A DNA stretch of 64,000 nucleotides from an uncultured Gammaproteobacteria bacterium (GTDB taxonomy: Bacteria; Patescibacteriota; Patescibacteriia; UBA10025; JAHIVO01): NCBI GenBank assembly GCA_964415025.1, contig CAYPXF010000006.1, positions 58-64,057 on the forward strand, given 5' to 3'. This document shows positions 17-36,510 of the stretch, in pieces. The stretch's first letter is position 1; each line of letters starts with the position of its first letter. The notes under the pieces are model-generated. The model saw nothing but the letters and a program-made list of their open reading frames with translations. It had not been told where the DNA came from and ran no database searches. The translations under genes were made by a program, and so were the position numbers.

Positions 17-3000
17 CTAAAAATTCGCCGTAGCGATAAAGGTAATACTGGTCGTATACTGGCCTGCCTCAGTCTGGCCGCTGATATTGGCAATATAGTA
101 CAGACTAATTGTCTCCGTAGCAGTAGCAGTTGATTCAGAGACTAATGTCTCCTTGCTGTCAGCAATAAAGGTATAATCTGCTGCCGCGCCGCCAGTATCA
201 TAATCATAGCCTGCGGCAATGGTCGCGTCAGTGCCGGCCGAGGCACTAATAGCAAACTGCTCGGTGCCGGGCGTGCCGTTTTCGTCATTTGTCCAGGTAG
301 CTACGTCTATGCTATCTGACCCGTTCGTGAGCGTCGATCCACTATATGTGATCGAATATCCGTTATCCGCATTGGTAGTGATTTGCAGAGTGTGAGCCGG
401 GGTCGCAGTAGCCGAACCGGTCTCATCGCCGGTGGCCCAGGTAGCGGCTGTACTGGATAAAGAGCCAAAGCCGACGCCCATGTCCGGTCCGGTATCAGCA
501 ATACTGAATGATAATGTATTGAAATTCCAGCAGTCGTTATTAGTCGCGTCGAAGTTGGTGCCGTCAGTCGCGTCTATGGTATCGCCGCCGCACGCGTTTG
601 AATCACGGACATCGGTATTTGACACAAACTGGGTGCCGCTGCTGATCAAGTTCCACTGGGTACCGGTCGATGATGACCGCAGGAAAACGCGCGTACCCTC
701 GGCCTGGCCGTCGAAATCAATATTGTTAAAGGTGTAATCACTGCCCGCGTTAAACTGCAGCTGGGTGCTGGCCGTATTGGCCGTGAAATTATTGGCAGTC
801 TGGGCGGCGGCGCCAAAAATAACATCAGGATCACTGCCGCCGGCGTTGGTAATAGTGAGATTATAAAACTGGCCGCCTGCTCCTGTTAATGTCCCCTCAA
901 AAGTTTGCTGCGCAGACCCGTCAGCCGTCACCGTACTGCTGCGTGCCGTAAACGTGTCGTTGTTAGTCCAATCCCCGCCAATGGCAATACTGTTATTCTC
1001 GCCACTCTTCGTATCGAGCGTACCGCCGGTGATTGTCAGGTCATCATTCACGTCAAACGCTGACTCCAGCTGGAACGTATCACCGTCAGCCGCGTCATTT
1101 AACACCACCGCGTAGAAATCATCCTTTGTGGCACCGGTGGAATCAATAGTCACCGTGCCGGCGCTGACTGACGACGCGTCAAAAGTAACCGTACCTGACC
1201 GCGCTTCAAACGTATCACTGTTACTCCAGTTACCGCCGACCGTGATCGCGTTGTTTTCCACTGACACAACATCGAGCGTACCGTCGGTAATAGTGAGATT
1301 ACCATTGAGGGTAATCGGATCTTCTACTTCCACGGTCAGGCTACCGCCGCCACCGTCATTGACAGTAACATTATTCAGGTCACAGGTATTGCACGTCGGG
1401 CTAATCACCAGATTAGACGTTCCGGTCGTGTCATTAAAAGTAATGGTAGACGTATCCGGATAATATCTGGCACCAGAGCTCACCGTAAAATCACCGCCCA
1501 GCTCAATAAACGTTGCATCGCCCTCTCCGTCATCAGTGGCATCCATAACACCATCGATAAGTATATCTGTCTCGATCGCCACATCATAGCCATTAGTATT
1601 GAAAATATCACTGCTTCCTACACGCAGGCTCTTGGCTTTCAGGTCCGAGGACAAATCAGTCGTATCCGGCGATGCGCCGATCCACAGCGTGCCCATATCC
1701 TGGAGCGTAGCCGTACTGTCAGTAAAGGTGAGATCACCGTCAAACACGACTTTACCCGTGCCAGATGCTTTGGTAAAAGTCGTGCCAGAAGCAAGAGTAA
1801 AATTACCAGCCACGTTCAGGTCGCTGTCCGCCGCCTGGGTAAAGGCGGCCGTGTCAGCCAGGTCAAAGGTGCCGTCCACGTCCATAGCGCCCACCTGGCT
1901 GATAGTGCCGGTGCTGGAGGCCTTATAATTATAAATAGTCTGGCCGCCCGGCGTGATAGACTTGGAGGCGCCGTCCATATGGAAAGTATGATCGGTGGTT
2001 GCCGTTACAGTACAATTTGTCAGATCGACATCACCGGTCACCTGGTAGGTGCCGGTGCCGGTATTAATATTATTGGTGCCTGTACCAGCACAGGAAACCG
2101 AACCGCCTATATCCAGTGACGGGTTATTTTCCGTACCGGATAATGTCGCCGCATTGGTGCCGTCACCAATTATGAGATTATTATTTATATCCAAATCTCC
2201 CGACACTGGCAGCGTATGCGTGGCCGTCCCGCTGGGCTTAATTTCCAAATTATAATAACTGCCGTCTAATACCACGCCATCTATGCTGTCAATGTTAGTT
2301 GCGCCAGCTCCAGTATACCTGAACGTCGAGGTGCCACCCGTAATACGGCCATTTGTAGTAATAGGTGTACCTGTCCCGGTGATAATCCATGTCTTCGGTC
2401 CGGCATTTAATGTATGCTCTTTATCTCCCAGATTAAAACATGACGCCACGGCTAGTGTACCATTTACGGTCACGCTCCCTGTGCCCGTAGCGGTCGTCGT
2501 ATAAGCACCACAAACCGGCAAATAAAATTCTAGATTATTAAATGTCCAGTTGCTCGCACCGCCCATATTGCCGGTACCCGCGATGCGGAACGTAGCGCCA
2601 GTCCAATCCACCACCCCGTCGCCGGTGAGATCGCCGCCCTTGACCGTAAAGTTGTTTGACCCGGACAAGGTTGAGCCCGACCCGACAGTCACGTCATTAT
2701 TCACGGTAACGGCACTGGCAACGGTAATAGTACCCGCACCAGATGTTTGGAAATCATATAACGGATCACCTGACGTAGTCAGGGTAGCGGCATCATCTAT
2801 GTGTAATACATTGCCGGTCGCCGCCGTATAATCTCCGCCCGTAAAATCAACATCATCAGTCACTGTCCAGGTGCCCGTGCCAGACGTAATAGTTGGACTG
2901 CCGTCACCTACACCGGAAAAGCTAAGCGATCCAGTAATATTCATGGTCGGATTATTCGTGGCGCCGTCAATAGTCAGGCTGTTACCGTTTTCAACTACGC

Positions 3001-6000
3001 CGGTTAAATTATAGGCAATCGTATGCTCACCCGCACCCAGCTCAATCGTGCGGTCTGTTGTTCCTGAATTGGTGTACAGTTCCACACTGCCGCCGTATGA
3101 TCGCGCCGGCATGGTGCTCGTATTGCCATTGGTCGCGTCAAAACGGATTTGCGTGTTAATCACGCCGCCCGTTGGTATGACGGTCGCGGAATCTATAACC
3201 AAATACCCCGAATCCCGGATCGCATTAACGATCGAGCCATTGAGCGTAAATGAACTGCCGGTCCAGATTACATTAACACTGTCGATTGACAAGATGTCGC
3301 CGGTATCCACATAGAGCTGATTATCAATAGTTATATTATCCGTCTCCACTGCCACGGTCGCGGCGCCGCCGTTTGAATCCACGACCAGGTTATTAAACGT
3401 GGCGCCGTTTGATTGGAGCGTACCCGAGTCCGTCCATATCAAATCAGCCGTATCCGCAGAAACCGTTGTCTGGATAGTGAGGTCACCTGTCAAAAAATAA
3501 TTACCAGCATTAAAGGTATAGGTCGGCGTGCCGCTGGCCGGCTGGAGATACAGATTATTATATGATTTTGTCTGCTCAATAGTCGTGGCTGATGTGCCGG
3601 TGTACTTAAATGTAGACGTCTGGCCATCCAGGCTGCCGTTACCTGCGCCTCCGTCAGCCTGATCATGAAATACCGTGCCTGATCCGCTCAATATCCAGTC
3701 TTTGCCCCCGGCAGCAAGCTGGTGACTGTACCAATATTCACTGACCATCGAATAATTAGCCTGTATTGTCAGCTGATTGGTGATAGTGATACTACCGCTG
3801 CCTGTGGCGCTAGTAGTGTAATCAGTAGTACCACTGTGCTGGAATATTAAATCATAAAATGCCCAGGCACTATCACCGCCAAAATTATTGCTCCCATTAA
3901 CGATATTAAACGAACCCCCACTCATATTGATAGTGCCGTTACCGGTCACATCATCATCGACTTGGATATTCGAATCGCCAATAATAGTACCGTTAGTTAC
4001 GGTTAAATTGCCGTCGATTCCACAGCCGTTTTCAAATTCCCATTCACCGCCCACACCGTCAAAAGTCATATTATTATGCGTTGAAGCAAAATAAAGCGTT
4101 TCCCCTGTCGAGGTTGAAGTAAACTTTGTTGTATTACTTCCTGGTATATATGCGTCAATCGTATCAGCTCTCCAAGATCCACCTATGGTGACATCGTGAT
4201 CGGTCGCGTTAAATGTCGCGTCATTATCAATATGAATGTCCCCGCCCTGTTGCGTAGTTACTGTTCCTCCAGGGGCATAGGTATCACTATTCCATACGTG
4301 CAGGCCAACATTTACGTCGATAGTAAGGTTATTGGTGGATACCGCATACTTCACGTCGTCGTCACTGTCATCACCAGTAGCCAGATTGGCGTTGGTTATC
4401 GATCCAGTATCCGCGCGAACAATAACCCAGTCCTGATATACATCCACATTACTCTGGTCAGTACCGTCTGAAACGTATACTGTCGTGCCTTCTTCTGTTT
4501 CATTTTCCAGGTATACGGTGATTACATCTCCTGATGCTATCGTCAGTCCGGTGATGCTCCAGCCTCCGTCTGCGGCTGAACATTCAGTCGTATCAGCACC
4601 GGCGCCGTCAATGCGGAGATTGACTGTCTTCGCACCGGCTGAACAGTCGATAGCGGTCGTGCCTTCGTCACTGTATAATGTCCCTGAAATAGTGGCTCCA
4701 CAACTTCCCCCGGCAGAAATACTCCAGTCTGTATTATTACCCCCGTCATTCGAATACGTCGCGCAAAAGGCCACGCCGGTATTAGTCGAGTATGATACGT
4801 CAACATATGACACGTCAGCCGCCGTGGGATTGACGGTCCAGGCGCTGGTGGTCGAGGACTGCAGTGTCACCAGCTGGCCGCTGGCGCCCGTTACCGTCCA
4901 GGTACCGGAAATGGTCTGTGTCGTACCGGCCGTAAACGTCATGGTCTTGACCGCGCCAATACCCGAGACCGTAAAATCATTAAACGTCGTACTTCCGCTG
5001 ATCGTGGCGGTTGCCGTAGTCGTAAACTGGACCGTGCCGCTGTTATGCGTAAAGGTATTGCTGTTTGACCAGCTGCCCTGCACGTACAGGATACCGTTGG
5101 TACTGGTCAATGAGCCGCTACCGCCGATAGATAGGTCATGGACAGTCACATTACCGCTGTCAATCGTCACACTGCCTGACGCAGTGAAGTCATACAGCAT
5201 CTTGCCGCTGGCGTACAGTGTTTTGCTTGCCCCGTCCATGACAATACTATTGCCGCTGGTCGCGTTAAAGGTATCGCAATTTGATAAATCCATGTTGCCA
5301 CTCATAGTCCAGACGTCAGTACCAGTAGTTACCGTATTCGTGCCAGCTCCGGTTGTACAGCTGAACGTGCCATCTACATCCACGGTAGAGTCATACGTGT
5401 CTGCTTCAAACGTGACCGTATTCGTGCCGTCGCCGACTACCATATTACTTGTCGCGGCGATAAAAGTGCCATAGACTGTGTAGGTCGGCGACCCGCCGGT
5501 CGGCTTAAACTCTACATTATTATATGTCTGCGGCTCAATATTGGTCGCGCTAGTGCCCATATATCGCACGGTGGATGTCTGCGCTATAAATGAGTCCTGG
5601 CTCACGCCATCCTCATCTACCAGCGGCCGGCCTGATCCGCTCAATATCCAGTCCTTACTGCCAGCATTGAGATTATGGGAGCGGTAGTCATCACCGGTAC
5701 CATAATATGTCGATTCCAGCGTCATCACATTAGTGACAGTAATACTGCCCGAACCGGTAGCTGTTGTGTCAACCTCTACTGTACCAGAATGCCCAAACGT
5801 TAGATTATAAAATGTCCAGCCAGTGTCCCCACCAAAATTATTACTGCCATTGCTTACCTGGAACGTGCCGCCGGTCAGATTAATCGTGCCGTCACCGGTA
5901 ACATGGTCATCCACGTATATATCAGCCGTGCCGGACAGCGTGCCCGCGGTCATGGTCAGATCGCCGTATATATTACCAGTCGTGGTAAACGACCAGCCGC

Positions 6001-9000
6001 CGCCTGACCCGTTGAATACTACATCGTCAAAGTATGTACCGCCGAGATCTATGCCAAAGCCAGTGCCTGTCGCGGTAAACGTGGTCGTGTGCGGTATGCT
6101 GCGTCCAAATGTACCGCTATTGTCAAAATCACCACCCACTGACAAGGCGTTACTAGAAATATTCAAATTTGCTCCAGTAGCGATGACGACATCACCGGAT
6201 GATCCGCTGGCCGTACTGCTCGGTGAGGTGGTCACTGTTCCGCCCGGCTGGAATACGCTGCTGGCCCATATGTACAGTCCGCTGCCGCTCGATACTGTCA
6301 GATTACCGGACGTCACCGTAAATATAACATCACTGTCATTACCACTGTCATAATTATCCAGCTCGGTATTGCTTAATGCATCAAACGCGCTCTCGGTCCG
6401 GGTGATCAGGTTGTTTTGGTACAGGTCAAAATCACTAATATCATCATACGGATTTTGTATCTCCGTAACCGTGGTGGCATTAGGCGTCTCATTATCCAGG
6501 AATACCGTCATAATATCGCCTTCGGCAGACAGGTCGACACTGCTGACTGTAAACGAACCGTCTGCTGCCGTACAGGTACCGGTATTGGTGCCTGCGCCGT
6601 TTACCTTAATACTGACCGTCAGATTGTTTGCAGAACAGTCATACTGGGTCGAGCCAGTATCACTGTAAATCGTACCGGATATATTGACCGGACCAAAGTC
6701 CCAGCAGTTGTTATTCCCCGAATTTACGTTCGAAGAATCAGTTACGTCTATGGTTGTGCCGCCGCACGCGTTCGAATCCTGGACATCAATATTAACGATA
6801 GATTGTCCGTGTAAGTTTCCGTAAGTAAAATCATACTGCGTCCCTGGATTATCAGAACGGAACGTCACGCCACTGGCAGACTGGCCATTGATAGAAATAC
6901 CATAGGCACTGTATTCAGACGCATCATTGAAACGTATATAAACCCCCTGTGTGGTAATAGTTAATGTGCCCTGAATTTCCACATCACCACCTGTGAAAAT
7001 AACCCCGGGGTCAGTGTCAGGATCAGTGCCAGACGTATTGGTAATGGTCATGTGATACAAGCCATTGGGTGATAGCAGTCCGGCACCAGTGTTAATTGTC
7101 TGGGGTGATGAGCCGCCAAGGTACACGTGCCCGAGGTTATTAACAATTGACCCACCGTTATAAGCAAAGTTACCATTAATATTAAGAGCAGCAGTATTTG
7201 ATGCGGCGAATGAAGTATAGGGATTGATAGTGAGCGTCCCAGTGACAGTAAACGTCGGGTCATTTGTATTGAGGTTAAATTCTGTATCGCCCGACCCGCC
7301 GTCCTGCGTCAGTGTCAAATCACGATCCACCTCTATCGTACCGCTGGCCGCGGTGACTGTATTCGACGTCGCGTTACCGTAAATCTCCACATGCTGGTAA
7401 TCAGTCCGCTCGGACATGGTGACATTATTACTCGTACTATCAAAACGGATAGTAATCGGCGGGTTTGATGCGATAGAGCCTGTGGTAGGAAAAGCAGTCG
7501 TGGACTTATAGACAAGGGTGCCTTCACCGTCTATATATCCAGAAAAAGTAAAGATAGCGGATGAATCTACGGTCAGTGTCCGACCCGACTCAATGCTCAA
7601 AACATTACCTGTCGCAACATTAAGCGTACCGCTAACTATGGGGTCGTCTGTACCAGCACTGTCCACGTCGACATCCCCCAAAAAATCGGCTGGGTCGATC
7701 GTCAAGTTATTAAATGTGGTATCGTTCGTTCCGCTGATTGATCCGCCGGCCAGGGTAATAGTGCTCGTCCCGGCGGTGAAAGCACCGTTATTTATCCAGC
7801 CGTTATCTACTTTCATATTTTTATCATTCGTAGAAAACGTCACGCCCGAATCAATAGTAAAGCTGTTAGCAATAGGGATAGTCTGCGTGGTGCTGGTATG
7901 GATAGCCGCGTCTTCAATTATTTTAAGATTGTAAAAACTGTGGGATTCTGATTCAACATCATAAAATAAACGCTGGGTATGGGTCGTACCCTGGCAAATG
8001 GCGCCGCCTGTTACCGTGGAAGTAGTAAAGGTGCCGCCATTATAAATCAAAATATTAGACGCGGTAATATTACAGCCATTGGCATCAGGATTAGTACCGG
8101 AAATCATATTAAACGTTAGACTGCCTGACCGCTGCATTTCCCAGGAGCCGTTGGTGCCGCCGCCGTATGCTCCGGTATGATGACTGCCGCCATAGAGGTT
8201 AATCGTGGCGCCATTGTTCCATTGGAAGTAGCGCCCAGCATCTATACTGCCGTCATTTAGATTCACAGTGGTACTGGCACCATCAACCAGAAAATCAGCT
8301 GACGAACCTTCCAGATCTATATCCGCGCCGCTATTAATATCCAGCGTACCGCCGTCCATGTCAAAATCATCGGCCACATCAACCACCGAAGAAATTTCCA
8401 GCGTACCGCCGTCCATATCTATATTGTCATTGATATCGACGGTGTTAGAAATAGTGACATCGCCAGCATCAATATCCAATAAATCCTGAATAACGGTAGT
8501 CCCCCCGCTTAAGTTAACCGTAGCGCCGCTGTTTACCCGCAGATCCTCATCCGTGCTATTGCCGATAGTAAATGTTGCCGCCGTATGATTTAGCGTGCCG
8601 GTCACATCTACGGCTATACCGGCTCCATTGACATTCGTCGTCTGCTGCACATTGAGGATAGCGCTGGTATCGATCGTGATTTCAGCGGCAATCGTATTCG
8701 TGGCCGTATCCAGATACAGTGTTGCGCCGTCGTCCACGTGTACATCGCCGCCCGTGCCCTGGGTCGTGACCGTGCCGCCCGGATCATACGTATCACCGGT
8801 CCACACATGCAGCTCAAATCCAGAATCAAACGTAACATTGCCCGACGAGACATCGAATTTAATATCATCGTCCCCGGCGTCGCGGTCGCCGGATTCTAGA
8901 TTAGTATTAGTGATAGATGCGCCCGTGTCATTCCGTACTATCACCGCGTTCTGAAATACGTCGATATTTGTTTGATTAGTACCGTCAGTCTTAAATACCG

Positions 9001-12000
9001 TGGTACCTTCATACGTGCCGTGGTCGTCCAAATATACCGTAATAATATCGCCGCTGGATGCGGATACGCCGGTCACTGACCAATCGCCATTGGTATCAGT
9101 GGTATCAGAACCAGCGCTAACTCCATTCACGTCAACCTGCACGGTCACGCCGGAGCCTACATTCGTAGACTCGTCCTCCTGGTAGGCAGTGCCGGACAAC
9201 GTAATACCAGAGCTCACACAGCCGTCGCACTGGGCGATAACGAAATCTACATAGGGCGGCGTATGGTCGGCAGAATTATACTCAGCAGTAATCGTGTGCG
9301 TATGCGTACCGCTGGCGTAGTTTGAGCCACCGCTGGCGCTCACGGTCGCGCTCGGCGTACCGCTAGGGCCACTAGTCGTACCGCTGTGGCTATGGGTGTT
9401 TGCGCCTGTCTGCGTACCTTCAGTAGTGGCATGCCCCCTGATAAAGCGTTGGTAATAATCCTCTGCCGCGCCGTCAGATATGACGTTCCAGCCAGTACCC
9501 GGATCACCGTCAAAAAGCCCAATAAAATTACTAGGTATGGTTTGGGCCGTAGTATTAGTCTGCTCATAAATAAGACTGGTCACATAGGCGGGAATAGACG
9601 TAGCTCCTGCAACGCGAGAAGGATCTGGCGCGCTGTGTGTATGCGAATCACTTGCCGCAAAATCACCAAGCAATGGGTCTAATTCCTGAATAGTACCACT
9701 CACTGCACCCAGAGAATTCCAGGTCACAACATGTTCATGCGTATCGCTACCGCCAGTCGTATGTGAATTGTCAAGCCTTACCAGCCGGCTATCAGCGCTG
9801 CTGAAGCGGGTCCAAGAGCCGCCAGGGTCTGCATCAAAAAATCCGAATGAATTATCTGGTATAGTAGTGGGTACACCGGTATCGTTTTTCCATATATAAA
9901 AGGTGTGATGCGCTGGATTATTATCAGCATTGTCTACTGACGGATCCACCGTAAGATGAGTATGAGTAGAAGTGGCGACCCATGAACAACGACGGGAACA
10001 GGTCGTGCCATAGGTAGACGACGGCCCACTCACACTGGTGTGATGGATAGTATGACTATGGGTGGCATTGCCGCCACCAGTCACGCTAAATGAAGCTGCT
10101 CCACGCAGAAAATCGCTGTCAAACGTGGCCGTATCATCGGTCCAGCCTGTTGGCGCCGAGGCTGTGTTAGCCAATACATACATATACACCACGTCAATAG
10201 CCATTTGCCACTGCCGTCCCTCGTCCCAGTCACCCACACGCGCCGGACCCACGAGATATAACGCCGGGCTGACTTCTGGTGTTTTGAAATTATAGTTGAG
10301 CTCGATTGTCTGGCCAGCAGAAATAATACGATTCCACACGATTTCTTTAACCGTTTTGTTACCTCGTGGCACTTCCCGAATAGTAGCGTCATCCAGAATT
10401 TCTATGTCATACACGCCAGGTACAACTTCCACTATTTCTCCCTCATAATCATCCTGTGCATATACTTCTAATTTCATCGGCTGGTAAATATACGGGAAAA
10501 CACGGGTCGGCCCGTCTCGGCGTATAGTATAGGCTGGATCATCTTCTGCCCAAAATAAATCGTCCAGCACGCGCGTGCCGTTGGCATGTGTGGCTTCAAT
10601 ACGCACGTCATACTGCCCTACCGTGTTGGCTGAATAATTACCATAATAATCAGGTCCCCGATAATCCCCTTTAAAACGGCAGTATTCACTGACACTGATG
10701 CTGCCGTTCGTAGTCGTTAACATGGTGACCCGGCCTGACGGGCTGGTTATGGTCATGTTTACTTCTGCGTCGCAGACCATGTCACCGGCATCGTCAAGAA
10801 CGCCGATAGAAAGCAGGCTGTCCTGGCCGGTTTGATAAATAGACTGATCTGGGTTAAAAGCCAGCACACCCCAGGTGAACTCCTCAACCACTTGCTCGAC
10901 AACGCCATCCTGCTCAATGGTCAGTGCTACCCGGTATTTACCCGGTTTATCAAATACCGACGTATCGACAGTATATTCAGCCTTTGTCACGTCGCCGACA
11001 CGGACATCCTTCTTCTCGAGCGGTGCATCAATTGTTTCGCCATCCGGCGATATAATTTCAACTTTTTTAATATCGCGCGTAGTCGGATCAGCGCCAAGAA
11101 AGTCAAAAAATGCTTCTTCCTCTACAGCTACATCAATCACCGGATCTTCATCCGCAGCCAAATCTGTATCCGCGATAGTTACACTCTCCTGGATCGCCTG
11201 GCTGGCCGGATGCGGCTCCTGCAGTCCTGCTTCAATCACCACCGCATCGAGATACGCCGTAGCTGATTGATCACCGGTCGCCGCATCATAGCGCACACCG
11301 AAACGCAAGCGTGATAAATCAGCCGCGGATTCTAGATATGGCATGAGCGAAAATTTCCAATACCCTTCATTCGTGCTGTTATTCATCGCTTCATACAGCG
11401 GCTGGGTTCCTAATACTTCCCAGGTTTGCCCATCATCTACGGAGAGTAAAAAAGTGATTACGTCTTCATTACCAGCATACGTATCCGCGGCCAATGATAT
11501 GAGTACGCTGGCATGCTGCAGCAGTACATCAGCCGGGACCGTATCGGGCAAACGGTAATCGCCTGCTTCAAACAGTGCTTCCACTGGTGTGGCAATTAGC
11601 TCGTCGCTAACTGACACCTCATCGCCCAGCACCTGGGGATTTGATTCCGTAGCCGGTAACGGCTGGCTGCTGGTGTTTTTCATAACCGTTTCAGGTGGTG
11701 CTGTTGTGCCCTGTTCTGCCGAGGCTTGGTTTAGTGGCGCTGTTTGTACCGGCCGATTAGCATATACCGCGGAGTTTTTATCAGTAAACGCGCCGAGGCC
11801 GGCAGTAGAGGGCAAATCCAAATACCGCGCATTGTCTGGATACTGCCAGCCGCTGACTGTGGCCGGCTCGAGTGTGATACTGTACTCTTTTTGCTCTGGA
11901 GCGCCTGCCTGGATAGTATAGACATAACTAAAAAATATTGCCTGGACCGCAACAAAAGCAAAGGCTACTATTCCGGCGGAATACACAAATACTGAAAACT

Positions 12001-12373
12001 TCTTACTAACAAGACGAAGTTTTATTTTAGATACGGACAGCTTCGAATCCAGTACGTATTTGCCATTCTCGTATGGTTCTGGATCAGCTGGCGTTGGTGG
12101 CGGAGGTGTAACGCCATGCTCCTGCTCATATAGCTCCCGTACTACTCCGCATTCATAGCGGCGATCCTGCCGAGAACCAATGCGAACTGCGGTAAGCTTA
12201 CCAGTCCTGTCCCAATTACGAATCGTATTTGGATGAACACCAAAAATCTCACTCACTTGTTTGATAGTGAGGAGTTTAGGCAGTGAACCAAAATCGATAC
12301 GATGGCTGCTATTGGTGGTTTTTTTACCCCCTGAATTTGGTATGGTTTTTTGTGTGTTCTTGCCTCCGGGCAC
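17..12373 (-). CDS. giant 4118-aa membrane-anchored surface protein: N-terminal excisionase/MerR-type HTH, Pro-rich linker, single TM helix, then ~3900 aa of Thr/Gly/Asn/Asp-rich beta-helix/Ig-like repeat modules and a C-terminal beta-sandwich
   Basis: One open frame from 12373 to TAG at 17-19. HTH-like LLTIKQVSEIFGVHPNTIRNWDRTGKLTAVRIGSRQDRRYE, then TPPPPTPADPEP, then TM FSVFVYSAGIVAFAFVAVQAIFFSYVY. Three copies of a ~170-aa module (GDIITVYLDD..EGTTV..GGTVTTQ). The only in-frame start before the TM is GTG at 12373 (next ATG ~residue 231); no clear SD. Plus-strand ORFs overlapping it are low-complexity antisense artefacts. Confidence 0.8.
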   Translation of the reverse strand: MPGGKNTQKTIPNSGGKKTTNSSHRIDFGSLPKLLTIKQVSEIFGVHPNTIRNWDRTGKLTAVRIGSRQDRRYECGVVRELYEQEHGVTPPPPTPADPEPYENGKYVLDSKLSVSKIKLRLVSKKFSVFVYSAGIVAFAFVAVQAIFFSYVYTIQAGAPEQKEYSITLEPATVSGWQYPDNARYLDLPSTAGLGAFTDKNSAVYANRPVQTAPLNQASAEQGTTAPPETVMKNTSSQPLPATESNPQVLGDEVSVSDELIATPVEALFEAGDYRLPDTVPADVLLQHASVLISLAADTYAGNEDVITFLLSVDDGQTWEVLGTQPLYEAMNNSTNEGYWKFSLMPYLESAADLSRLRFGVRYDAATGDQSATAYLDAVVIEAGLQEPHPASQAIQESVTIADTDLAADEDPVIDVAVEEEAFFDFLGADPTTRDIKKVEIISPDGETIDAPLEKKDVRVGDVTKAEYTVDTSVFDKPGKYRVALTIEQDGVVEQVVEEFTWGVLAFNPDQSIYQTGQDSLLSIGVLDDAGDMVCDAEVNMTITSPSGRVTMLTTTNGSISVSEYCRFKGDYRGPDYYGNYSANTVGQYDVRIEATHANGTRVLDDLFWAEDDPAYTIRRDGPTRVFPYIYQPMKLEVYAQDDYEGEIVEVVPGVYDIEILDDATIREVPRGNKTVKEIVWNRIISAGQTIELNYNFKTPEVSPALYLVGPARVGDWDEGRQWQMAIDVVYMYVLANTASAPTGWTDDTATFDSDFLRGAASFSVTGGGNATHSHTIHHTSVSGPSSTYGTTCSRRCSWVATSTHTHLTVDPSVDNADNNPAHHTFYIWKNDTGVPTTIPDNSFGFFDADPGGSWTRFSSADSRLVRLDNSHTTGGSDTHEHVVTWNSLGAVSGTIQELDPLLGDFAASDSHTHSAPDPSRVAGATSIPAYVTSLIYEQTNTTAQTIPSNFIGLFDGDPGTGWNVISDGAAEDYYQRFIRGHATTEGTQTGANTHSHSGTTSGPSGTPSATVSASGGSNYASGTHTHTITAEYNSADHTPPYVDFVIAQCDGCVSSGITLSGTAYQEDESTNVGSGVTVQVDVNGVSAGSDTTDTNGDWSVTGVSASSGDIITVYLDDHGTYEGTTVFKTDGTNQTNIDVFQNAVIVRNDTGASITNTNLESGDRDAGDDDIKFDVSSGNVTFDSGFELHVWTGDTYDPGGTVTTQGTGGDVHVDDGATLYLDTATNTIAAEITIDTSAILNVQQTTNVNGAGIAVDVTGTLNHTAATFTIGNSTDEDLRVNSGATVNLSGGTTVIQDLLDIDAGDVTISNTVDINDNIDMDGGTLEISSVVDVADDFDMDGGTLDINSGADIDLEGSSADFLVDGASTTVNLNDGSIDAGRYFQWNNGATINLYGGSHHTGAYGGGTNGSWEMQRSGSLTFNMISGTNPDANGCNITASNILIYNGGTFTTSTVTGGAICQGTTHTQRLFYDVESESHSFYNLKIIEDAAIHTSTTQTIPIANSFTIDSGVTFSTNDKNMKVDNGWINNGAFTAGTSTITLAGGSISGTNDTTFNNLTIDPADFLGDVDVDSAGTDDPIVSGTLNVATGNVLSIESGRTLTVDSSAIFTFSGYIDGEGTLVYKSTTAFPTTGSIASNPPITIRFDSTSNNVTMSERTDYQHVEIYGNATSNTVTAASGTIEVDRDLTLTQDGGSGDTEFNLNTNDPTFTVTGTLTINPYTSFAASNTAALNINGNFAYNGGSIVNNLGHVYLGGSSPQTINTGAGLLSPNGLYHMTITNTSGTDPDTDPGVIFTGGDVEIQGTLTITTQGVYIRFNDASEYSAYGISINGQSASGVTFRSDNPGTQYDFTYGNLHGQSIVNIDVQDSNACGGTTIDVTDSSNVNSGNNNCWDFGPVNISGTIYSDTGSTQYDCSANNLTVSIKVNGAGTNTGTCTAADGSFTVSSVDLSAEGDIMTVFLDNETPNATTVTEIQNPYDDISDFDLYQNNLITRTESAFDALSNTELDNYDSGNDSDVIFTVTSGNLTVSSGSGLYIWASSVFQPGGTVTTSPSSTASGSSGDVVIATGANLNISSNALSVGGDFDNSGTFGRSIPHTTTFTATGTGFGIDLGGTYFDDVVFNGSGGGWSFTTTGNIYGDLTMTAGTLSGTADIYVDDHVTGDGTINLTGGTFQVSNGSNNFGGDTGWTFYNLTFGHSGTVEVDTTATGSGSITVTNVMTLESTYYGTGDDYRSHNLNAGSKDWILSGSGRPLVDEDGVSQDSFIAQTSTVRYMGTSATNIEPQTYNNVEFKPTGGSPTYTVYGTFIAATSNMVVGDGTNTVTFEADTYDSTVDVDGTFSCTTGAGTNTVTTGTDVWTMSGNMDLSNCDTFNATSGNSIVMDGASKTLYASGKMLYDFTASGSVTIDSGNVTVHDLSIGGSGSLTSTNGILYVQGSWSNSNTFTHNSGTVQFTTTATATISGSTTFNDFTVSGIGAVKTMTFTAGTTQTISGTWTVTGASGQLVTLQSSTTSAWTVNPTAADVSYVDVSYSTNTGVAFCATYSNDGGNNTDWSISAGGSCGATISGTLYSDEGTTAIDCSAGAKTVNLRIDGAGADTTECSAADGGWSITGLTIASGDVITVYLENETEEGTTVYVSDGTDQSNVDVYQDWVIVRADTGSITNANLATGDDSDDDVKYAVSTNNLTIDVNVGLHVWNSDTYAPGGTVTTQQGGDIHIDNDATFNATDHDVTIGGSWRADTIDAYIPGSNTTKFTSTSTGETLYFASTHNNMTFDGVGGEWEFENGCGIDGNLTVTNGTIIGDSNIQVDDDVTGNGTINMSGGSFNIVNGSNNFGGDSAWAFYDLIFQHSGTTDYTTSATGSGSITITNQLTIQANYSMVSEYWYSHQLAAGGKDWILSGSGTVFHDQADGGAGNGSLDGQTSTFKYTGTSATTIEQTKSYNNLYLQPASGTPTYTFNAGNYFLTGDLTIQTTVSADTADLIWTDSGTLQSNGATFNNLVVDSNGGAATVAVETDNITIDNQLYVDTGDILSIDSVNVIWTGSSFTLNGSIVNAIRDSGYLVIDSATVIPTGGVINTQIRFDATNGNTSTMPARSYGGSVELYTNSGTTDRTIELGAGEHTIAYNLTGVVENGNSLTIDGATNNPTMNITGSLSFSGVGDGSPTITSGTGTWTVTDDVDFTGGDYTAATGNVLHIDDAATLTTSGDPLYDFQTSGAGTITVASAVTVNNDVTVGSGSTLSGSNNFTVKGGDLTGDGVVDWTGATFRIAGTGNMGGASNWTFNNLEFYLPVCGAYTTTATGTGSVTVNGTLAVASCFNLGDKEHTLNAGPKTWIITGTGTPITTNGRITGGTSTFRYTGAGATNIDSIDGVVLDGSYYNLEIKPSGTATHTLPVSGDLDINNNLIIGDGTNAATLSGTENNPSLDIGGSVSCAGTGTNNINTGTGTYQVTGDVDLTNCTVTATTDHTFHMDGASKSITPGGQTIYNYKASSTGTISQVGAMDVDGTFDLADTAAFTQAADSDLNVAGNFTLASGTTFTKASGTGKVVFDGDLTFTDSTATLQDMGTLWIGASPDTTDLSSDLKAKSLRVGSSDIFNTNGYDVAIETDILIDGVMDATDDGEGDATFIELGGDFTVSSGARYYPDTSTITFNDTTGTSNLVISPTCNTCDLNNVTVNDGGGGSLTVEVEDPITLNGNLTITDGTLDVVSVENNAITVGGNWSNSDTFEARSGTVTFDASSVSAGTVTIDSTGATKDDFYAVVLNDAADGDTFQLESAFDVNDDLTITGGTLDTKSGENNSIAIGGDWTNNDTFTARSSTVTADGSAQQTFEGTLTGAGGQFYNLTITNAGGSDPDVIFGAAAQTANNFTANTASTQLQFNAGSDYTFNNIDFDGQAEGTRVFLRSSSTGTQWNLISSGTQFVSNTDVRDSNACGGDTIDATDGTNFDATNNDCWNFNTLSFSIADTGPDMGVGFGSLSSTAATWATGDETGSATATPAHTLQITTNADNGYSITYSGSTLTNGSDSIDVATWTNDENGTPGTEQFAISASAGTDATIAAGYDYDTGGAAADYTFIADSKETLVSESTATATETISLYYIANISGQTEAGQYTTSITFIATANF

Positions 12374-12499
12374 TCTTTTTTTTATATCGGCTAATTTTAG
12401 CCATTAAGTCAATACTACTTAACAAAGAACATATCATAATTATAGCAAAAAAGATGCCATCTGTCTATAGTGCGGCTTATTTTATTAACTTAACAACTT

Positions 12500-26329: not shown

Positions 26330-28759
26330 ATGGCTTTCGCGTCACCCTACCAGGATGAGCACGCGCCAAAACCACAAGCCTGGCATATACAGCCTCGCTT
26401 TGTTTACGTCGCCGTTTTTCTGTCTGGGTTGGCGGCGCTGCTCTATGAATTACTATGGGTGCGCATACTACATATCATGTTTGGTGTCAGCAGTTTTTCT
26501 GTAGCCACAGTATTTGGTGTATTTCTTCTGGGTATTGGCATCGGCAGTGTCCTGTTCGGTAAAAAATCAGAGACCTCGGAAAATCCGCTCAAGCTGTATG
26601 CCTGGATTGAGATTGGTATCGCCGTCGTGTCCAGCATCGCTTTTATAATCGCGTATCATACTCCGGTACTCGATACTGTGTTATCTTTTACCTATAATAA
26701 CTTTTCTTTTTATCTCCAGTCACTGGCGAGGCTGGTTGTGACGGCTGTTATCCTCTTACCGCCAACAATCGCTATGGGCGGCACTATTCCAGTCATAAGC
26801 AAATATTTTATCCGCCATGAGAGGACACTGGGATCTCGGTTCAGTACTCTGTACTACCTTAACACGCTCGGGTCGTTTGCCGGCGCGCTGCTGACTGGAT
26901 TACTGTTAGTCAATATCCTCGGTATTACCTATTCCTGGGCACTGGCTGTGCTGATAAATGGAGTCATAGGAATTGGTATTTTGCTCTGGCATAGTCAGGC
27001 AGATAAAGGCCCCGCGCCCGTACCAATACAAAATCATGAATCGGCCCGGAACAGACCGGTGCGGTCAATGCTATTGGTTCTTTTTTTGACAGGCTTTATT
27101 ACTCTGGCTTTTGAAATTGTGTGGATACGCGTATTGACAAATTTCGGATCAGGCACTACCCTTGCTTCATCACTGATTCTGGGTGGCTTCTTAATCGGTT
27201 TTGTGGTGGGCAGCGTGTATATTGCGCGTATTATTGACCGGCTAAAAAATCTCGCCTGGCACTTATCACTCTACGCTGTGCTGTCCGGTACGGTGGGCGC
27301 TTTTATTCTTTTTGTGTTTGGCAACCTCAATCATTTCCTGGCTCAACAGTTTTTTTCTTATCTGACACTGCTGACTGAAGCATGGATTGGTTTTGCGCTG
27401 TCTTTCATGATTGCTATTGTCTTGGGTACCCTGTTCCCCCTGGCAGTACGTGTCTATGCCGGAAATCAAAAAAGTATCGGCAAAAAAACTGGCATGGCAT
27501 ACATCGCCAACATGATTGGTGCGATTTGCGGCAGTATTTTCACAGGTTTTGTGCTCATTCCCTTTGTCGGTATCAAGCTTTCAGTTATTATACTAGTCAG
27601 CCTCTGTCTGGTGCTGGGGATTATTATTTTTTTCAAAACTGCCCATAAAAAGACTTTGTTGGTTTATGGAGGTACGGCGCTGACTATCACTGCCTGCTTT
27701 GTCGTCTTCAGTGGCAATACGTTTTTCCGCTCTCCGGCTGATGATATTTTGCTATGGTATGAGGAGGGCGTGGCAGCCACGGTCACGGTACATGAATCAT
27801 CAATGGGTACATATACCTACAAATACCTGAATGTAGACAGTCAAACGGTTGCCGGCACCTACCCCACCGGGATTATTGACGCAAAAATACTCGCCCACAT
27901 CCCGATCCTACTCACCGCTTCTCCGCAACGTGTAGCGACTGTCGGCTATGGCACGGGTATCACAACCTATAGCATGTCACTGTATGATGCGGACGTAACT
28001 GCGCTGGAAATAGAACAACAAGTGATTAACGCTGCCATTAGTGAATTTAGTACATATAACCACCGTGCCGATACAAGACAAAACGTGTCGATCGTGATTG
28101 ACGACGCGCGTAACTACCTGCAAATGACTGACGCCCAATACGATACCATCGTGACTGATGTCACAAACTTGAAATACAAGAACAATCCCTATCTCTATAC
28201 CACCGATTATTTCCGCACCATACAGCGGCGCTTGACAAAAACAGGAGTAGCGGCTGCGTGGGTACCGCTCGGGGGGCTATCTGAAAATGATCTTAAAATT
28301 TTAGCCAAGAGTTTCCAGTCCGTATTCCCTCATACCACCATGTGGTACTATGCGTATGAACCGACCGGCTTTCTCGTCTTTGTCGGTACGCCGGAACGGT
28401 TGGTTGTCGATATTGATGCACTTGCTCAAAAAATCAAGCCCGTGGCAAACGATTTGGAGCACATTGGTATAGCCAACGAATATATGGTCGCGGCAATGCT
28501 ACTCCTTGGAGAACGGGATGTCGCTGATTTTGCGGCTGATGCACCGCTGCACACGGATGACCGTCCGATCCTCGAATATACCGATTTAGACGTCTATGCC
28601 ACGGCTAACCCATTGCAAAATTTAGAAGCCTTGGTCTCCACCCAAAAAGAAATTCTCAAACCATATTATTCATTCACTCCTGAACAGGAACAAGACCTTC
28701 TCAATGCACTCGGCACCTCCAGAGCGCTGATCAATCACTACCTGCTTGAACACCAATAA
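26330..28759 (+). CDS. fused MFS-like membrane domain / spermidine-synthase-like (polyamine aminopropyltransferase family) protein
   Basis: Roughly 450 aa of polytopic TM segments followed by a class I SAM-MTase/spermidine-synthase-like domain (VATVGYGTGIT..ALEIEQ..DDARN). Confidence 0.7.
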   Translation: MAFASPYQDEHAPKPQAWHIQPRFVYVAVFLSGLAALLYELLWVRILHIMFGVSSFSVATVFGVFLLGIGIGSVLFGKKSETSENPLKLYAWIEIGIAVVSSIAFIIAYHTPVLDTVLSFTYNNFSFYLQSLARLVVTAVILLPPTIAMGGTIPVISKYFIRHERTLGSRFSTLYYLNTLGSFAGALLTGLLLVNILGITYSWALAVLINGVIGIGILLWHSQADKGPAPVPIQNHESARNRPVRSMLLVLFLTGFITLAFEIVWIRVLTNFGSGTTLASSLILGGFLIGFVVGSVYIARIIDRLKNLAWHLSLYAVLSGTVGAFILFVFGNLNHFLAQQFFSYLTLLTEAWIGFALSFMIAIVLGTLFPLAVRVYAGNQKSIGKKTGMAYIANMIGAICGSIFTGFVLIPFVGIKLSVIILVSLCLVLGIIIFFKTAHKKTLLVYGGTALTITACFVVFSGNTFFRSPADDILLWYEEGVAATVTVHESSMGTYTYKYLNVDSQTVAGTYPTGIIDAKILAHIPILLTASPQRVATVGYGTGITTYSMSLYDADVTALEIEQQVINAAISEFSTYNHRADTRQNVSIVIDDARNYLQMTDAQYDTIVTDVTNLKYKNNPYLYTTDYFRTIQRRLTKTGVAAAWVPLGGLSENDLKILAKSFQSVFPHTTMWYYAYEPTGFLVFVGTPERLVVDIDALAQKIKPVANDLEHIGIANEYMVAAMLLLGERDVADFAADAPLHTDDRPILEYTDLDVYATANPLQNLEALVSTQKEILKPYYSFTPEQEQDLLNALGTSRALINHYLLEHQ

Positions 28760-33021: not shown

Positions 33022-33095
33022 TACCTGGGGCCGGACTCGAACCGGCGACCTAAGGCTTATGAGTCCTTCGCTCTAACCAACTGAGCTACCCAGGC
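33022..33095 (-). tRNA. tRNA with CAU anticodon (elongator Met or lysidine-modified Ile2), no encoded CCA
   Basis: Folded by eye. Acceptor GCCTGGG/CCCAGGT, D-arm GCTCAGTTGGTTAGAGC, anticodon loop CTCATAA, T-arm GCCGGTTCGAGTCCGGC. The 31:39 position is mismatched. Confidence 0.8.
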
Positions 33096-33100
33096 TCGGC

Positions 33101-33149
33101 CTGGCAGGCGGATTAGTCCCGCGCTCTAACCGATTGAGCTACTCTGTCC
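33101..33149 (-). pseudogene. truncated tRNA-like fragment (5' acceptor strand + D-arm + non-canonical anticodon-like arm; no T-arm or 3' acceptor)
   Basis: GGACAGAGTAGCTCAATCGGTTAGAGCGCGGGACTAATCCGCC.. abuts the 5' end of the CAU tRNA 5 nt later. Its flanks (CCTGCC / GGCAGG) are complementary across the CAU tRNA. Confidence 0.5.
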
Positions 33150-33204
33150 TGTTTCCAAAAATGACGGATAAGGCATGAACCGTTATACTGGGCTTATTGT
33201 TTTT

Positions 33205-33279
33205 TGGTTGCCGGGGTGGGATTCGAACCCACGACCTCGGGATTATGAGCCCCGCGAGCTGCCACTGCTCTACCCGGCG
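33205..33279 (-). tRNA. initiator tRNA-fMet (CAU), CCA encoded
   Basis: Near-identical in layout to E. coli tRNA-fMet: C1:A72 mismatch, G-C-rich anticodon stem CGGGG-CTCATAA-TCCCG, T-arm GTGGGTTCGAATCCCAC, 3' ACCA. Confidence 0.9.
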
Positions 33280-33388
33280 ATATAGTTTATAAGTATTCTT
33301 TGGTATTATAGTTGACTTACGAAGATAATGCAAATACTTATGCCGCAGACGGGAGTTGCCGTGACCGCTGCCCTCGCGGCAGCTACGG

Positions 33389-33446
33389 TGGCCGAGAAAT
33401 TCACGCGATCTTGCGATCACGGAATTTTGAGTCCCGCGTGCCCGGC
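33389..33446 (-). pseudogene. degenerate partial copy of tRNA-Leu(CAA): acceptor stem + anticodon arm retained, D-arm and T-arm deleted
   Basis: GCCGGGC-ACGC-GGGACTCAAAATTCCG..GATCGCAAGATC..TTTCTCGGCCA aligns to the adjacent intact tRNA-Leu (GCCGAGA..ACGCACAGGACTCAAAATCCTG..CTCTCGGCA) with internal deletions. Confidence 0.5.
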
Positions 33447-33477
33447 ATGTATTATGCGACCCGCCTGCCAGTGCCTC

Positions 33478-33561
33478 TGCCGAGAGGGAGAGTCGAACTC
33501 CCATGAGGTTGCCCCCGCAGGATTTTGAGTCCTGTGCGTCTACCAATTCCGCCATCTCGGC
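33478..33561 (-). tRNA. tRNA-Leu (CAA), type II with long variable arm
   Basis: Acceptor GCCGAGA/TCTCGGC, D-arm GGCGGAATTGGTAGACGC, anticodon loop CTCAAAA, long variable arm, T-arm GGGAGTTCGACTCTCCC. Confidence 0.85.
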
Positions 33562-33691
33562 ACAGGCAGAGGCGGGCAGGTCTGACAATTACGCTACTCC
33601 GGCTTGTGAAGCATATTGTAGTAAAATAATAAATATTTGTCAATTATCAACTAGTATTGATTTAAATAGCATTAATGAATACAATATAAAC

Positions 33692-34869: not shown

Positions 34870-35658
34870 CTAGGGGTGTTTGGCTAATAGCCGATACAAA
34901 AAAGAATAACCCGCGCTGATGATCACTATAATGCTAATCCACTGCGTCACGAGCAGTGGGCCGATTTGTGGGTGATCGATACGGAAAAAGTCCAGGGCAA
35001 AACGGACAATGCCAAACAGGAAAAAGTAAACGAGTGTCAGCATTCCCGGGCGCCAGTCATATCGCCGTGACACATACCACAACATCCCGAATACCGCTAC
35101 CATGGCTAGCGATTCATACAGAAAGATCGGATGAAAATGTGTAGCCTCGATGAACTCACCGAGTCGGTTCGTAATGGAAATAGGAATACCCCACGGCAAG
35201 TCAGTGGGCGGTCCATATAGCTCCTGATTAAAATAATTCCCCCAGCGGCCAATAGCCTGCATCAGCGGTACACCAACTACCATCACATCGGTCATGCGCC
35301 AGAAGGAAAGGTGCTGGCGATGGCAGTAGACAGCTGCTGTGATCAGGCAGGCTATCAGCACACCATGAAATGCCAATCCACCCTCCCAAATACGCAATAT
35401 GGAAACAGGCTGACTGATATAATACGGCCACTCGGCTATCACATGAGCGATCCGTCCGCCGATCAAGCCGGTAGGTAATAAGAGTAAAAACAGGTTATAC
35501 ACGTGGTGTGTACTAACCTGTTTTTGTCTGGCTCGAAATATACTAACACCAAGTCCAGCAACAAGAGCGGTAACAATAATTATCCCATACCAGTATATAT
35601 TCCACGGACCAATGGCAACCGCGACTGCTCCTGGCTGATTAGTAAACAGCCAGTCCAT
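34870..35658 (-). CDS. lgt: prolipoprotein diacylglyceryl transferase
   Basis: Seven TM segments with the Lgt signature (YGLxxxxG, GGRIAHV.. region). 262 aa. Confidence 0.85.
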   Translation of the reverse strand: MDWLFTNQPGAVAVAIGPWNIYWYGIIIVTALVAGLGVSIFRARQKQVSTHHVYNLFLLLLPTGLIGGRIAHVIAEWPYYISQPVSILRIWEGGLAFHGVLIACLITAAVYCHRQHLSFWRMTDVMVVGVPLMQAIGRWGNYFNQELYGPPTDLPWGIPISITNRLGEFIEATHFHPIFLYESLAMVAVFGMLWYVSRRYDWRPGMLTLVYFFLFGIVRFALDFFRIDHPQIGPLLVTQWISIIVIISAGYSFLYRLLAKHP

Positions 35659-35665
35659 ATACTAA

Positions 35666-36445: not shown

Positions 36446-36510
36446 AGTATAATTTGTATAGTTAATTATCCTCAAACATATACACTATTGTACCAAAAAA
36501 TAAGAGTGTG

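Follow-up and report, generated by a model that had tools for sequence, protein, structure and literature searches.

We describe a giant gene of an uncultured member of the Patescibacteria, found in a 64,000-nucleotide stretch of contig CAYPXF010000006.1 (hereafter the window, i.e., the whole 64-kb stretch of DNA that was analysed). A single open reading frame (ORF) on the minus strand (17..12373, GTG start, stop codon 17-19) encodes a protein of 4118 amino acids (aa), in which a winged helix-turn-helix (HTH) domain of the BldC/Xis/MerR type precedes the export segment of a long, repeat-rich extracytoplasmic part. Comparative analysis shows this fusion to be conserved, in at least 28 species, and indicates strong purifying selection on it. 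We hypothesize, with a probability of roughly 0.4, that the fused HTH acts as a membrane-tethered BldC-type autoregulator of the giant gene, supplied one-for-one with the exported giant protein. Patescibacteria, also called the Candidate Phyla Radiation (CPR), are ultra-small and mostly episymbiotic, and very little is known about their regulation or the machinery by which they attach to hosts. With 19% of the window occupied by this gene, which would amount to about 1% of a typical CPR genome, its control must matter to the cell; the fusion probably lets the cell regulate what is a very costly gene.

A winged HTH fused to a giant exported protein

The original prediction described one continuous frame of 4118 aa at 17-12373, which is correct once the strand is given as minus. 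The GC content of the gene (~50%) is close to that of the window (~48%), and an identical 4118-aa protein is present in public collections as P0001 (NCBI, 64199-nt contig) and as a second copy in a Logan assembly. An excisionase/MerR-type HTH had been proposed at the N-terminus, and hidden Markov model searches identify it as a genuine MerR/Xis/BldC-type domain: Pfam MerR (PF00376; 30.3 bits with the whole protein, 35.4 bits with aa 1-220, cutoff 28.2) and HTH_17 (PF12728; 27.8 and 32.9 bits, cutoff 27) both match aa 34-83 over their gathering scores. On the basis of Pfam, PDB relatives and conservation, the domain covers aa 31-83 (12125..12283, minus strand, as all coordinates of the gene below), carries the signature LP.LLTI.QV..I..VHPNT(I/L)RNWD..GKL.AVR.G.R.DRRY and follows a basic, poorly conserved tail (aa 1-30, 12284..12373, 15% mean identity). 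Its best PDB relatives are BldC (6amk, E 1e-5, ~45% identity over 50 aa) and the Xis protein of mycobacteriophage Pukovnik (4j2n). Matches to other models were below cutoff or partial, namely the excisionase model TIGR01764 (16.6 and 21.3 bits, cutoff 28.8), an NCBIfam HspR model, also under its cutoff, and MerR_1 (PF13411), which spans only profile positions 2-38 of 69.

Neither the coiled-coil dimerisation helix nor the effector domain of classical MerR proteins was found after the HTH, which ends at about aa 83, as in the minimal winged HTH of the BldC family, and is followed by a proline-rich linker and the membrane segment; stand-alone relatives are about 60 aa long. The linker (aa 84-125, 11999..12124, delimited from sequence and alignment) contains the predicted poly-proline stretch, read directly as TPPPPTPADPEP at aa 89-100, and closes with the K/R-rich KIKLRLVSKK just before the membrane segment. 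Pfam searches of the protein found neither an OmpR/PhoB-type winged helix (Trans_reg_C) nor the RodZ features HTH_25 and DUF4115; the suggested comparison with RodZ- and ToxR-like proteins is, therefore, an analogy only, the HTH type of neither being present. No integrase was found near the gene, whose neighbourhood consists of chromosomal housekeeping functions. Judged from sequence, the HTH is a member of the MerR/HTH_17 superfamily that resembles the minimal BldC/Xis subgroup, and not a classical MerR, ToxR-like or RodZ domain.

An exhaustive HMMER search with aa 1-1100 as query returned 2513 relatives, giant proteins of Patescibacteria metagenome-assembled genomes, some of which are named by NCBI only as “helix-turn-helix domain-containing protein”. 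A word-index homology search with aa 1-220 gave no matches, and an N-terminal profile query (A1) retrieved only small HTH proteins and not the giants. The same N-terminal HTH is found in 21 of the 150 best cluster representatives, with the hydrophobic segment 40-80 residues later; the remaining 129 have no HTH and begin directly with a short signal-peptide-like segment. A genome scan with one genome per GTDB species yielded 291 loci with the HTH signature, and the figures that follow are from the best 80 of these. The signature lies inside a long ORF at 28 loci, with a hydrophobic segment detected after the HTH in 26; nearly all these ORFs overrun the ~4.5 kb fetched downstream (usually >1300 aa). 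Another 53 loci are stand-alone HTH ORFs of at most 200 aa, most of them ~60 aa, with the same VHPNTLRNWD signature. In none of the 28 orthologous or paralogous long-ORF loci is the frame interrupted, by a stop or a frameshift, from the HTH to the hydrophobic segment. The original prediction had named a broken frame and missing profile support for the HTH as observations that would speak against it; since the fusion is conserved, the HTH supported and the frame unbroken, neither was encountered.

The HTH is the best-conserved part of the protein. Its mean identity to the window protein is 61%, against 16% for the linker, 28% for the hydrophobic segment, 31% for the juxtamembrane region and 29-38% for the base of the ectodomain. 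Among 20 aligned HTH-bearing N-termini, 14 positions of the HTH are invariant (P32, L35, H47, N49, T50, R52, W54, D55, L60, R64, G66, R68, D70 and R71), and the ectodomains of the same proteins are merely ~30-45% identical. On a neighbour-joining tree of the conserved ectodomain core, HTH presence requires 6 state changes compared with ~19 (minimum 14) when labels are randomised, and one clade of 12 is entirely HTH-bearing. It is, therefore, reasonable to consider the fusion stably inherited and under purifying selection. In the literature searched, we found no description of a BldC-type HTH ahead of the export signal of a giant protein; membrane-anchored HTH proteins and extended signal peptides on giants are already known, and what appears to be new is the placement of a BldC-type HTH before the export signal of a giant macroglobulin (MG)/immunoglobulin (Ig)-repeat protein, across a CPR clade.

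The in-frame start candidates are GTG1, GTG40 (within the HTH), GTG130 (within the hydrophobic segment) and, as the original prediction had noted when it placed the first ATG ~690 nt into the frame, an ATG that appears only at codon 231 (nt 691). Because no alternative start codon was found between the HTH and the export segment, the two are obligatorily co-translated. The closest orthologues likewise have only GTG or TTG at the equivalent start position, and no Shine–Dalgarno (SD) sequence was found upstream of the GTG, also in agreement with the prediction.

Promoter repeats and the case for autoregulation

The giant gene is preceded by a sigma-70-like promoter (12439..12467, minus strand), formed by TAGACA, a 17-nt spacer and a TG-extended TATAAT, with 11/12 matches. 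A motif scan placed a distal GTTAAGT upstream of the −35 box (12488..12494) and a proximal one ~15 nt after the −10 box (12417..12423); the latter is a candidate operator half-site or, alternatively, the 5′ arm of a leader hairpin, since ACTTAAT (12403..12409) is its inverted partner in the sequence and in the predicted hairpin (TTAAGT/ACTTAA stem). From the −10 box to the GTG, the order is GTTAAGT, ACTTAAT, a perfect 14-bp palindrome, GGCTAAAATTAGCC (12389..12402, both strands), and a run of eight A (A8). GTTAAGT occurs only three times in the window, two of them in the 130-bp intergenic region of the giant, and the degenerate GKTARGT is under-represented (10 found, 21.8 ± 4.7 expected), with two of the ten flanking the giant promoter.

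These elements recur in relatives. The upstream regions of 14 orthologous giant loci can be aligned, though the proteins are ~45-50% identical, and share the −35 box T(G/A)GACA, an extended −10 box TGnTATAAT/TATACT and, after it, tandem tttG[GT]TAAGT repeats with a period of 9-10 bp, together with an inverted copy, GCTAAC.TAAGC; this element or TTAGCC, both related to the palindrome, is found in orthologues. The period and the placement after the −10 box invite comparison with the head-to-tail arrangement used by BldC, but inverted copies are present as well. The motif G[GT]TA[AG]GT is found upstream of the HTH codons at 18 of the 28 giant loci, a count that includes the window itself (2.4% expected, P~6e-23), where copies cluster at −172..−197 nt from the VHPNT codon, and upstream of 22 of the 53 stand-alone HTH genes (5% expected, P~6e-15), although both P values are overstated because the loci are phylogenetically related.

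The ~60-aa stand-alone BldC-like gene (VHPNTLRNWD...DRRY) is widespread in Saccharibacteria, Parcubacteria, Woesebacteria and other Patescibacteria; examples among loci L024-L081 are L032 (~3900-4170) and L053 (~1400-1700). At or right after their own −10 box, stand-alone genes of this kind carry aatG[GT]TAnCA aatGGTA[AG]GT, or a dyad such as GTAAACTTATGGTAAGTTTAC, and the gene is a probable autoregulated transcription factor. That the leader repeats are common to giants and stand-alone HTH genes points to autoregulation rather than sensing. No stand-alone HTH paralogue was found within the 64-kb window, and a small HTH gene directly upstream of HTH-less paralogues, which could have represented an operon precursor of the fusion, was not seen in the three loci inspected.

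Besides the relatedness of the loci mentioned above, several observations weigh against an autoregulator of the BldC type. The NCBIfam BldC model itself (NF033787) scores 26.5 and 31.7 bits, far under its cutoff of 77, and the equivalent of BldC Arg30 is not conserved (N53 occupies the aligned position, next to the invariant R52), although that of Lys36 is present as K59. Two HTH-less paralogues lack the leader motif, and a third (L083) has a similar leader without the HTH, which may mean that the element is controlled in trans or has nothing to do with the fused HTH. Folding of the leader gives two adjacent hairpins (z = −2.78), and hairpins are predicted in most orthologous leaders, with stem sequences that differ between clades. 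The motif could, thus, act as an RNA 5′ stem-loop, i.e., a 5′ stabiliser or a translational element of a 12-kb mRNA devoid of an SD sequence, or could simply be a legacy of the promoter that came along when a giant gene received its small HTH gene by fusion. A search for an Rfam family for the leader gave IS128 as the sole match (E = 1.6), which is noise.

We nonetheless favor autoregulation, which can be pictured as follows. The gene would encode the pre-protein of a large Patescibacterial giant family, whose members combine a beta-sandwich stalk with long repeats and, at the C-terminus, a conserved domain. In a subset of the lineages, the export signal would have acquired an in-frame fusion to a winged HTH of ~55 aa (BldC/Xis type), of the kind encoded by the widespread ~60-aa stand-alone gene, small and apparently autoregulated. 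The HTH would remain cytoplasmic, with the single hydrophobic segment as its membrane tether and, because it is translated on the same pre-protein, would be made strictly one per exported giant. We infer that it binds the TAAGT-containing repeats and the palindrome in the leader of its own gene, after the −10 box and before the GTG, and that transcription of the 12.4-kb gene is thereby subject to feedback, probably negative; in an ultra-small cell, the chromosome would stay within reach of a membrane-tethered HTH. If the hydrophobic segment is not cleaved, it would serve as N-terminal anchor. Alternatively, a cut at A156|G157 would leave a 156-aa membrane-tethered HTH remnant that might be released by intramembrane proteolysis. 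The autoregulatory logic would hold in both cases and would need no allostery across the 3960-aa ectodomain. Such a circuit would provide a concrete regulator-target pair in an uncultured phylum, the HTH with its G[GT]TAAGT/palindrome leader, and possibly a new coupling of protein export or surface-protein copy number to transcription. Independently of mechanism, the searches provide a family definition for >2500 giant proteins without Pfam ectodomain annotation.

Membrane anchor or signal peptide

There is exactly one hydrophobic segment in the 4118 aa (~aa 126-156, 11906..11998), with K/R residues before it and acidic residues after it, which implies an N-in topology with the HTH inside the cell. 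The original prediction of one transmembrane (TM) helix stands as far as a single, N-in segment is concerned; its status as a lasting anchor is less certain, since the segment matches the signal peptides of paralogues and may be a cleavable hydrophobic (h-) region. It ends in T-I-Q-A156|G157, a candidate signal peptidase I site, and the layout is that of a Sec type I signal peptide (KIKLRLVSKK, a hydrophobic stretch and I-Q-A156|G), as in the HTH-less paralogues.

The first alternative, open to considerable doubt in our judgement, takes this layout at face value: the HTH would be carried in the ~125-aa n-region of a cleavable Sec signal peptide, signal peptidase I would cut at A156|G157 during export and so free the giant, the 156-aa remnant would be processed by a signal-peptide peptidase or site-2 protease, and the freed HTH would report to the chromosome that the giant has been exported, with one regulator molecule for every exported protein. 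A156 is at least 90% conserved among variable neighbouring residues, and the context [AVIL]-x-A | [G/E/D/S] is present in all 19 HTH-bearing proteins analysed (TIQA|G, TIRA|E, VVQA|E, HALA|D, LARA|D and IAKA|G are examples), an end that fits the −3/−1 rule for signal peptidase I. The signal peptides of HTH-less members end likewise (...GLFSMGMVLA|AGNTT, ...ALPALVQA|QSSS, ...PLAVWA|AENR), at an equal distance from a juxtamembrane motif common to both groups, P..(C).GW....A..ID......F...NSA (aa 170-202, 11768..11866): the median from site to P..GW is 10 residues without the HTH and 11 with it. Distant HTH-bearing members have short and typical h- and c-regions, e.g., AWSLMVAIGVLGSIAMSGALARA|DTG. 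The conserved small-x-Ala end and the match to paralogue signal peptides place the HTH effectively within an n-region, and because the segment corresponds to these signal peptides and bears the conserved site at the same distance, cleavage is plausible; we give cleavage at A156|G157 itself an even chance. Functions of signal peptides after cleavage are also known (PMC5371415, PMC4173765).

Other observations are at odds with a cleaved signal peptide. The window protein has an uncharged stretch of 34 aa and its closest relatives one of 29-32 aa, compared with 18-22 aa in several distant HTH-bearing members, and stretches of 29-34 residues are more typical of an uncleaved signal anchor. No LPXTG, lipobox Cys or C-terminal TM was found in the protein, which finishes with ...TSITFIATANF, and, with no other anchor, cleavage would free the giant unless its C-terminal domain binds the envelope. 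Neither a signal peptidase nor a site-2 protease gene was seen in the 64-kb window. In three smaller proteins of 340-368 aa (P0154, P0155 and P0157), a very similar HTH is joined by a long linker to one TM, beyond which a DUF1080/ConA-like domain (PF06439) lies on the extracellular side; no AXA site was found after their TM and, therefore, this HTH type is also used in genuinely tethered proteins. The full version of the scheme, a signal peptide carrying a transcription factor whose remnant, released by intramembrane proteolysis, reports completed secretion to its own operator, is doubtful, and we know of no bacterial precedent for it. If true, it would represent a direct, kinase-free circuit from secretion to transcription.

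An uncleaved, ToxR-like one-component regulator, the surface-contact sensor of the original prediction, we consider unlikely. In this case, the ectodomain would sense contact with a host or surface, by force or ligand, and signal through the TM, e.g., by clustering, to attachment genes. The conserved architecture, a hydrophobic segment long enough for a stable anchor and the HTH-TM-DUF1080 proteins with no cleavage-like site would suit such a device, envelope and pilus genes adjoin, and control of binding by clustering is plausible, given that HTHs of the BldC type bind as cooperative multimers. On the other hand, contact signalling requires a covalent link between HTH and ectodomain and is weakened by the plausibility of cleavage at the conserved small-x-Ala site with which the segment ends on its outer side. 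Conformational coupling is made less likely by the linker that joins HTH and TM, which has 16% identity and varies in length; a flexible ectodomain of ~3960 aa is implausible as an allosteric sensor; 129 of the 150 best representatives do without the HTH; and the gene neighbourhood differs between homologues.

It is improbable that the HTH is not a transcription factor at all and serves instead to bind a protein partner or direct targeting, to tether the chromosome non-specifically to the membrane, or to act before translocation in the manner of the ESPR and YSIRK signal-peptide extensions, which pace or localise the export of very large proteins. RodZ, whose HTH binds MreB, offers a precedent for a module of this sort, and genes of the FtsA/PilM and PilT types are found in the vicinity. 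Signal peptides extended at the N-terminus are reported as typical of very large exported proteins (PMC2805444, PMC12004944). In the opposite direction, the most conserved residues are located in the helix-turn-helix and wing (H47, N49, T50, R52, W54, R64, R68 and R71), stand-alone HTH proteins of 60 aa, devoid of any partner domain, share 50-60% identity with this domain, its closest solved relatives bind DNA, and conserved repeats are present at its own promoter.

Finally, an artefact, i.e., a small HTH gene and a giant gene misjoined by an assembly or homopolymer error, or a miscalled start, might be suspected from the SD-less GTG, the A-runs (A8, A6 and A7) around the start and an out-of-frame ATG at 12404, but is effectively refuted by the unbroken frame from HTH through hydrophobic segment in 28 independent species loci, by the same 4118-aa product in two independent assemblies, by the lack of a start codon between HTH and membrane segment and by the fact that a frameshift near A8 would merely extend the N-terminal tail and retain the HTH.

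Two alternative starts were considered. GTG130 would produce a plain signal peptide and was rejected, since it lies inside the hydrophobic segment, leaves no charged n-region and leaves the conservation of the HTH unexplained; with the first ATG at codon 231, there is no usable downstream start with a signal peptide. The ATG at 12404 (minus strand) opens a basic 26-codon ORF, MAKISRYKKKSARRQEHTKNHTKFRG* (window 12376-12404), which overlaps the GTG start and would be fused to the giant frame by a one-base deletion in the A8 run (12383-12376). We do not favor it as the true start by way of a homopolymer error: the closest orthologues start with GTG or TTG, the ORF of several of them opens merely 3-6 codons upstream of that start, and the second assembly gives the same product. 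An SD-like GGAGG pentamer is found 6 nt past the GTG, in codons 3-4 (window 12363-12367, minus strand); it is predicted to be paired in the leader/5′-coding structure and no usable start codon follows it.

Ectodomain, neighbourhood and known systems

The Ig-like repeats of the original prediction find support in an array of beta-sandwich (Ig/MG-like) domains at aa ~267-729 (10187..11575), which defines the family, as judged from an AlphaFold2 model and Foldseek. The model of aa 157-760, built from a 12-sequence alignment (mean predicted local distance difference test, pLDDT, 81), suggests a small membrane-adjacent beta domain that is separated by a disordered linker of low complexity from a series of beta-sandwich domains. 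Foldseek matches in the PDB were a Corynebacterium diphtheriae “membrane anchored protein” (3lso), the MG arrays of alpha-2-macroglobulin, complement and CD109, and the C-terminal domains of streptococcal AgI/II, with E ~1e-7 and TM-scores of just 0.14-0.16, low values that are expected for a flexible multidomain chain. Pfam MG2 matches were weak, both precomputed and direct, and no Pfam ectodomain family was found above threshold. A thioester (CxEQ) or bait region was not identified, although no search aimed at the thioester motif was made.

The array is followed by a His-rich, internally repeated region (aa ~765-1000, 9374..10081), in which aa 765-881 match 872-996 and (G/S/N/D)-(T/S)-H-x-H recurs; it has no Pfam or PDB match. 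Motifs such as THSHTIHH, DTHEH, DSHTH, NTHSH and GTHTH are reminiscent of the metal-binding HxH motifs of phage fibre proteins. The T/G/S/D/N-rich long repeats occupy aa 1054-3957 (503..9214). They do not follow a simple 170-aa period: segments of 95-200 aa with 31-59% identity are organized in higher-order units of ~650 aa, presumed to form a beta-helix, for which only a sub-threshold G8 match was obtained. The C-terminal domain (aa 3904-4118, ~215 aa, 20..664) has neither LPXTG nor TM, is conserved and always lies at the extreme C-terminus; it is present in 8 other family members, with or without the HTH (E 1e-48 to 1e-65, 49-60% identity). For the long repeats and this domain, there was no Pfam or PDB match above threshold, and the AlphaFold2 model of the last 215 aa is unreliable (pLDDT 47.7). 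A function in tip adhesion or envelope binding is conceivable for this domain.

The envelope neighbours of the original prediction (glycosyltransferase family GT2, LCP and pilT/pilM) are present next to the gene, together with Der, Pth, Mfd, DprA and TopA, and the genes in the rest of the window are those of an ordinary chromosome (ParAB, Lgt, DsbA-like genes, SUF, Fur, ZnuABC and the ribonucleotide reductase RNR). We searched for a conserved gene neighbourhood and rejected it, since the contexts of P0002, P0029, P0042 and P0050 differ; the exceptions are a glycosyltransferase gene close to the giant, seen in L082 and L083, and hypothetical genes of ~210-380 aa downstream of it in L001, L082 and L083. 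Giants of this family often have several such hypothetical genes after them, some with dockerin or Big-like matches (L001 28181-33333, L082 11011-13641, L083 9951-12500), and the window ends at the stop codon of our giant. Lgt is followed by two tandem DsbA-like thioredoxin-fold genes (window 34870-37263, minus strand) and, therefore, the organism makes lipoproteins and oxidises exported cysteines. This bears on the P..C.GW cysteine of many family members, which is V in the window protein. The window also contains an 809-aa ORF (26330-28759, plus strand) that joins an MFS-like membrane region to a spermidine-synthase-like methyltransferase domain, and a cluster of two tRNA-Met (CAT) and one tRNA-Leu (CAA) at 33022-33562 (minus strand), overlapped by mechanical ORFs. 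The records of several typical Patescibacteria loci (L002, L010, L016, L020, L022, L023 and L029) are titled “uncultured Gammaproteobacteria bacterium”, probably a taxonomic mislabel.

Among known systems, the ToxR, CadC, TcpP and VtrA group resembles the giant in its layout, with a domain of DNA-binding type at the cytoplasmic N-terminus, one TM and a C-terminal part outside the cytoplasm, and signals without a kinase. These regulators, however, combine an OmpR/PhoB-type winged HTH with a small periplasmic sensor, whereas the protein described here has a MerR/BldC-type HTH, an adhesin-like ectodomain of ~3960 aa and a signal-peptidase-like site after the TM. RodZ also shares the order of cytoplasmic N-terminal HTH, one TM and extracytoplasmic domain, but its HTH is of the XRE type, its partner is MreB and not DNA, and no sequence relation to the HTH of the giant was found.

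A second group of comparisons concerns the export signal. The extended signal peptide region (ESPR) of autotransporter and two-partner secretion proteins (PMC2805444) and the YSIRK/GXXS signals (PMC12004944) are reported from very large exported proteins. The 98-aa signal peptide of the Rem protein of mouse mammary tumour virus functions after cleavage (PMC5371415), and enterococcal pheromones are cut from lipoprotein signal peptides by Eep (PMC4173765). These share with the giant an extension before a normal h-region and cleavage site, with a possible life after cleavage; they are not known to have a folded DNA-binding domain, unlike the ~125-aa n-region here, where cleavage is putative. The giant genes of Omnitrophota (bioRxiv 10.1101/2023.11.21.568195) and giant adhesins resemble our case as extracytoplasmic proteins that are several thousand residues long, bear an N-terminal export signal and belong to bacteria of ultra-small size or episymbiotic habit, and an HTH, present here, is not reported in the Omnitrophota giants. 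The bacterial alpha-2-macroglobulin-like proteins may share with the giant a stalk of beta-sandwich, MG-like domains, as suggested by the model.

The closest likeness of the HTH itself is to BldC of Streptomyces (6amk/6ama; PMC5859096) and to Xis (4j2n), which are also minimal MerR-type winged HTHs without coiled-coil or effector domain. On 9-bp direct repeats, BldC forms multimers arranged head-to-tail (PMC5859096), and the presumed target here is likewise made of repeats, with the motif G[GT]TAAGT in place of AATTxxxxC. The main difference is one of setting: BldC is a free cytoplasmic protein of 68 aa, whereas its relative in the giant forms the N-terminus of an exported, membrane-tethered protein of 4118 aa.

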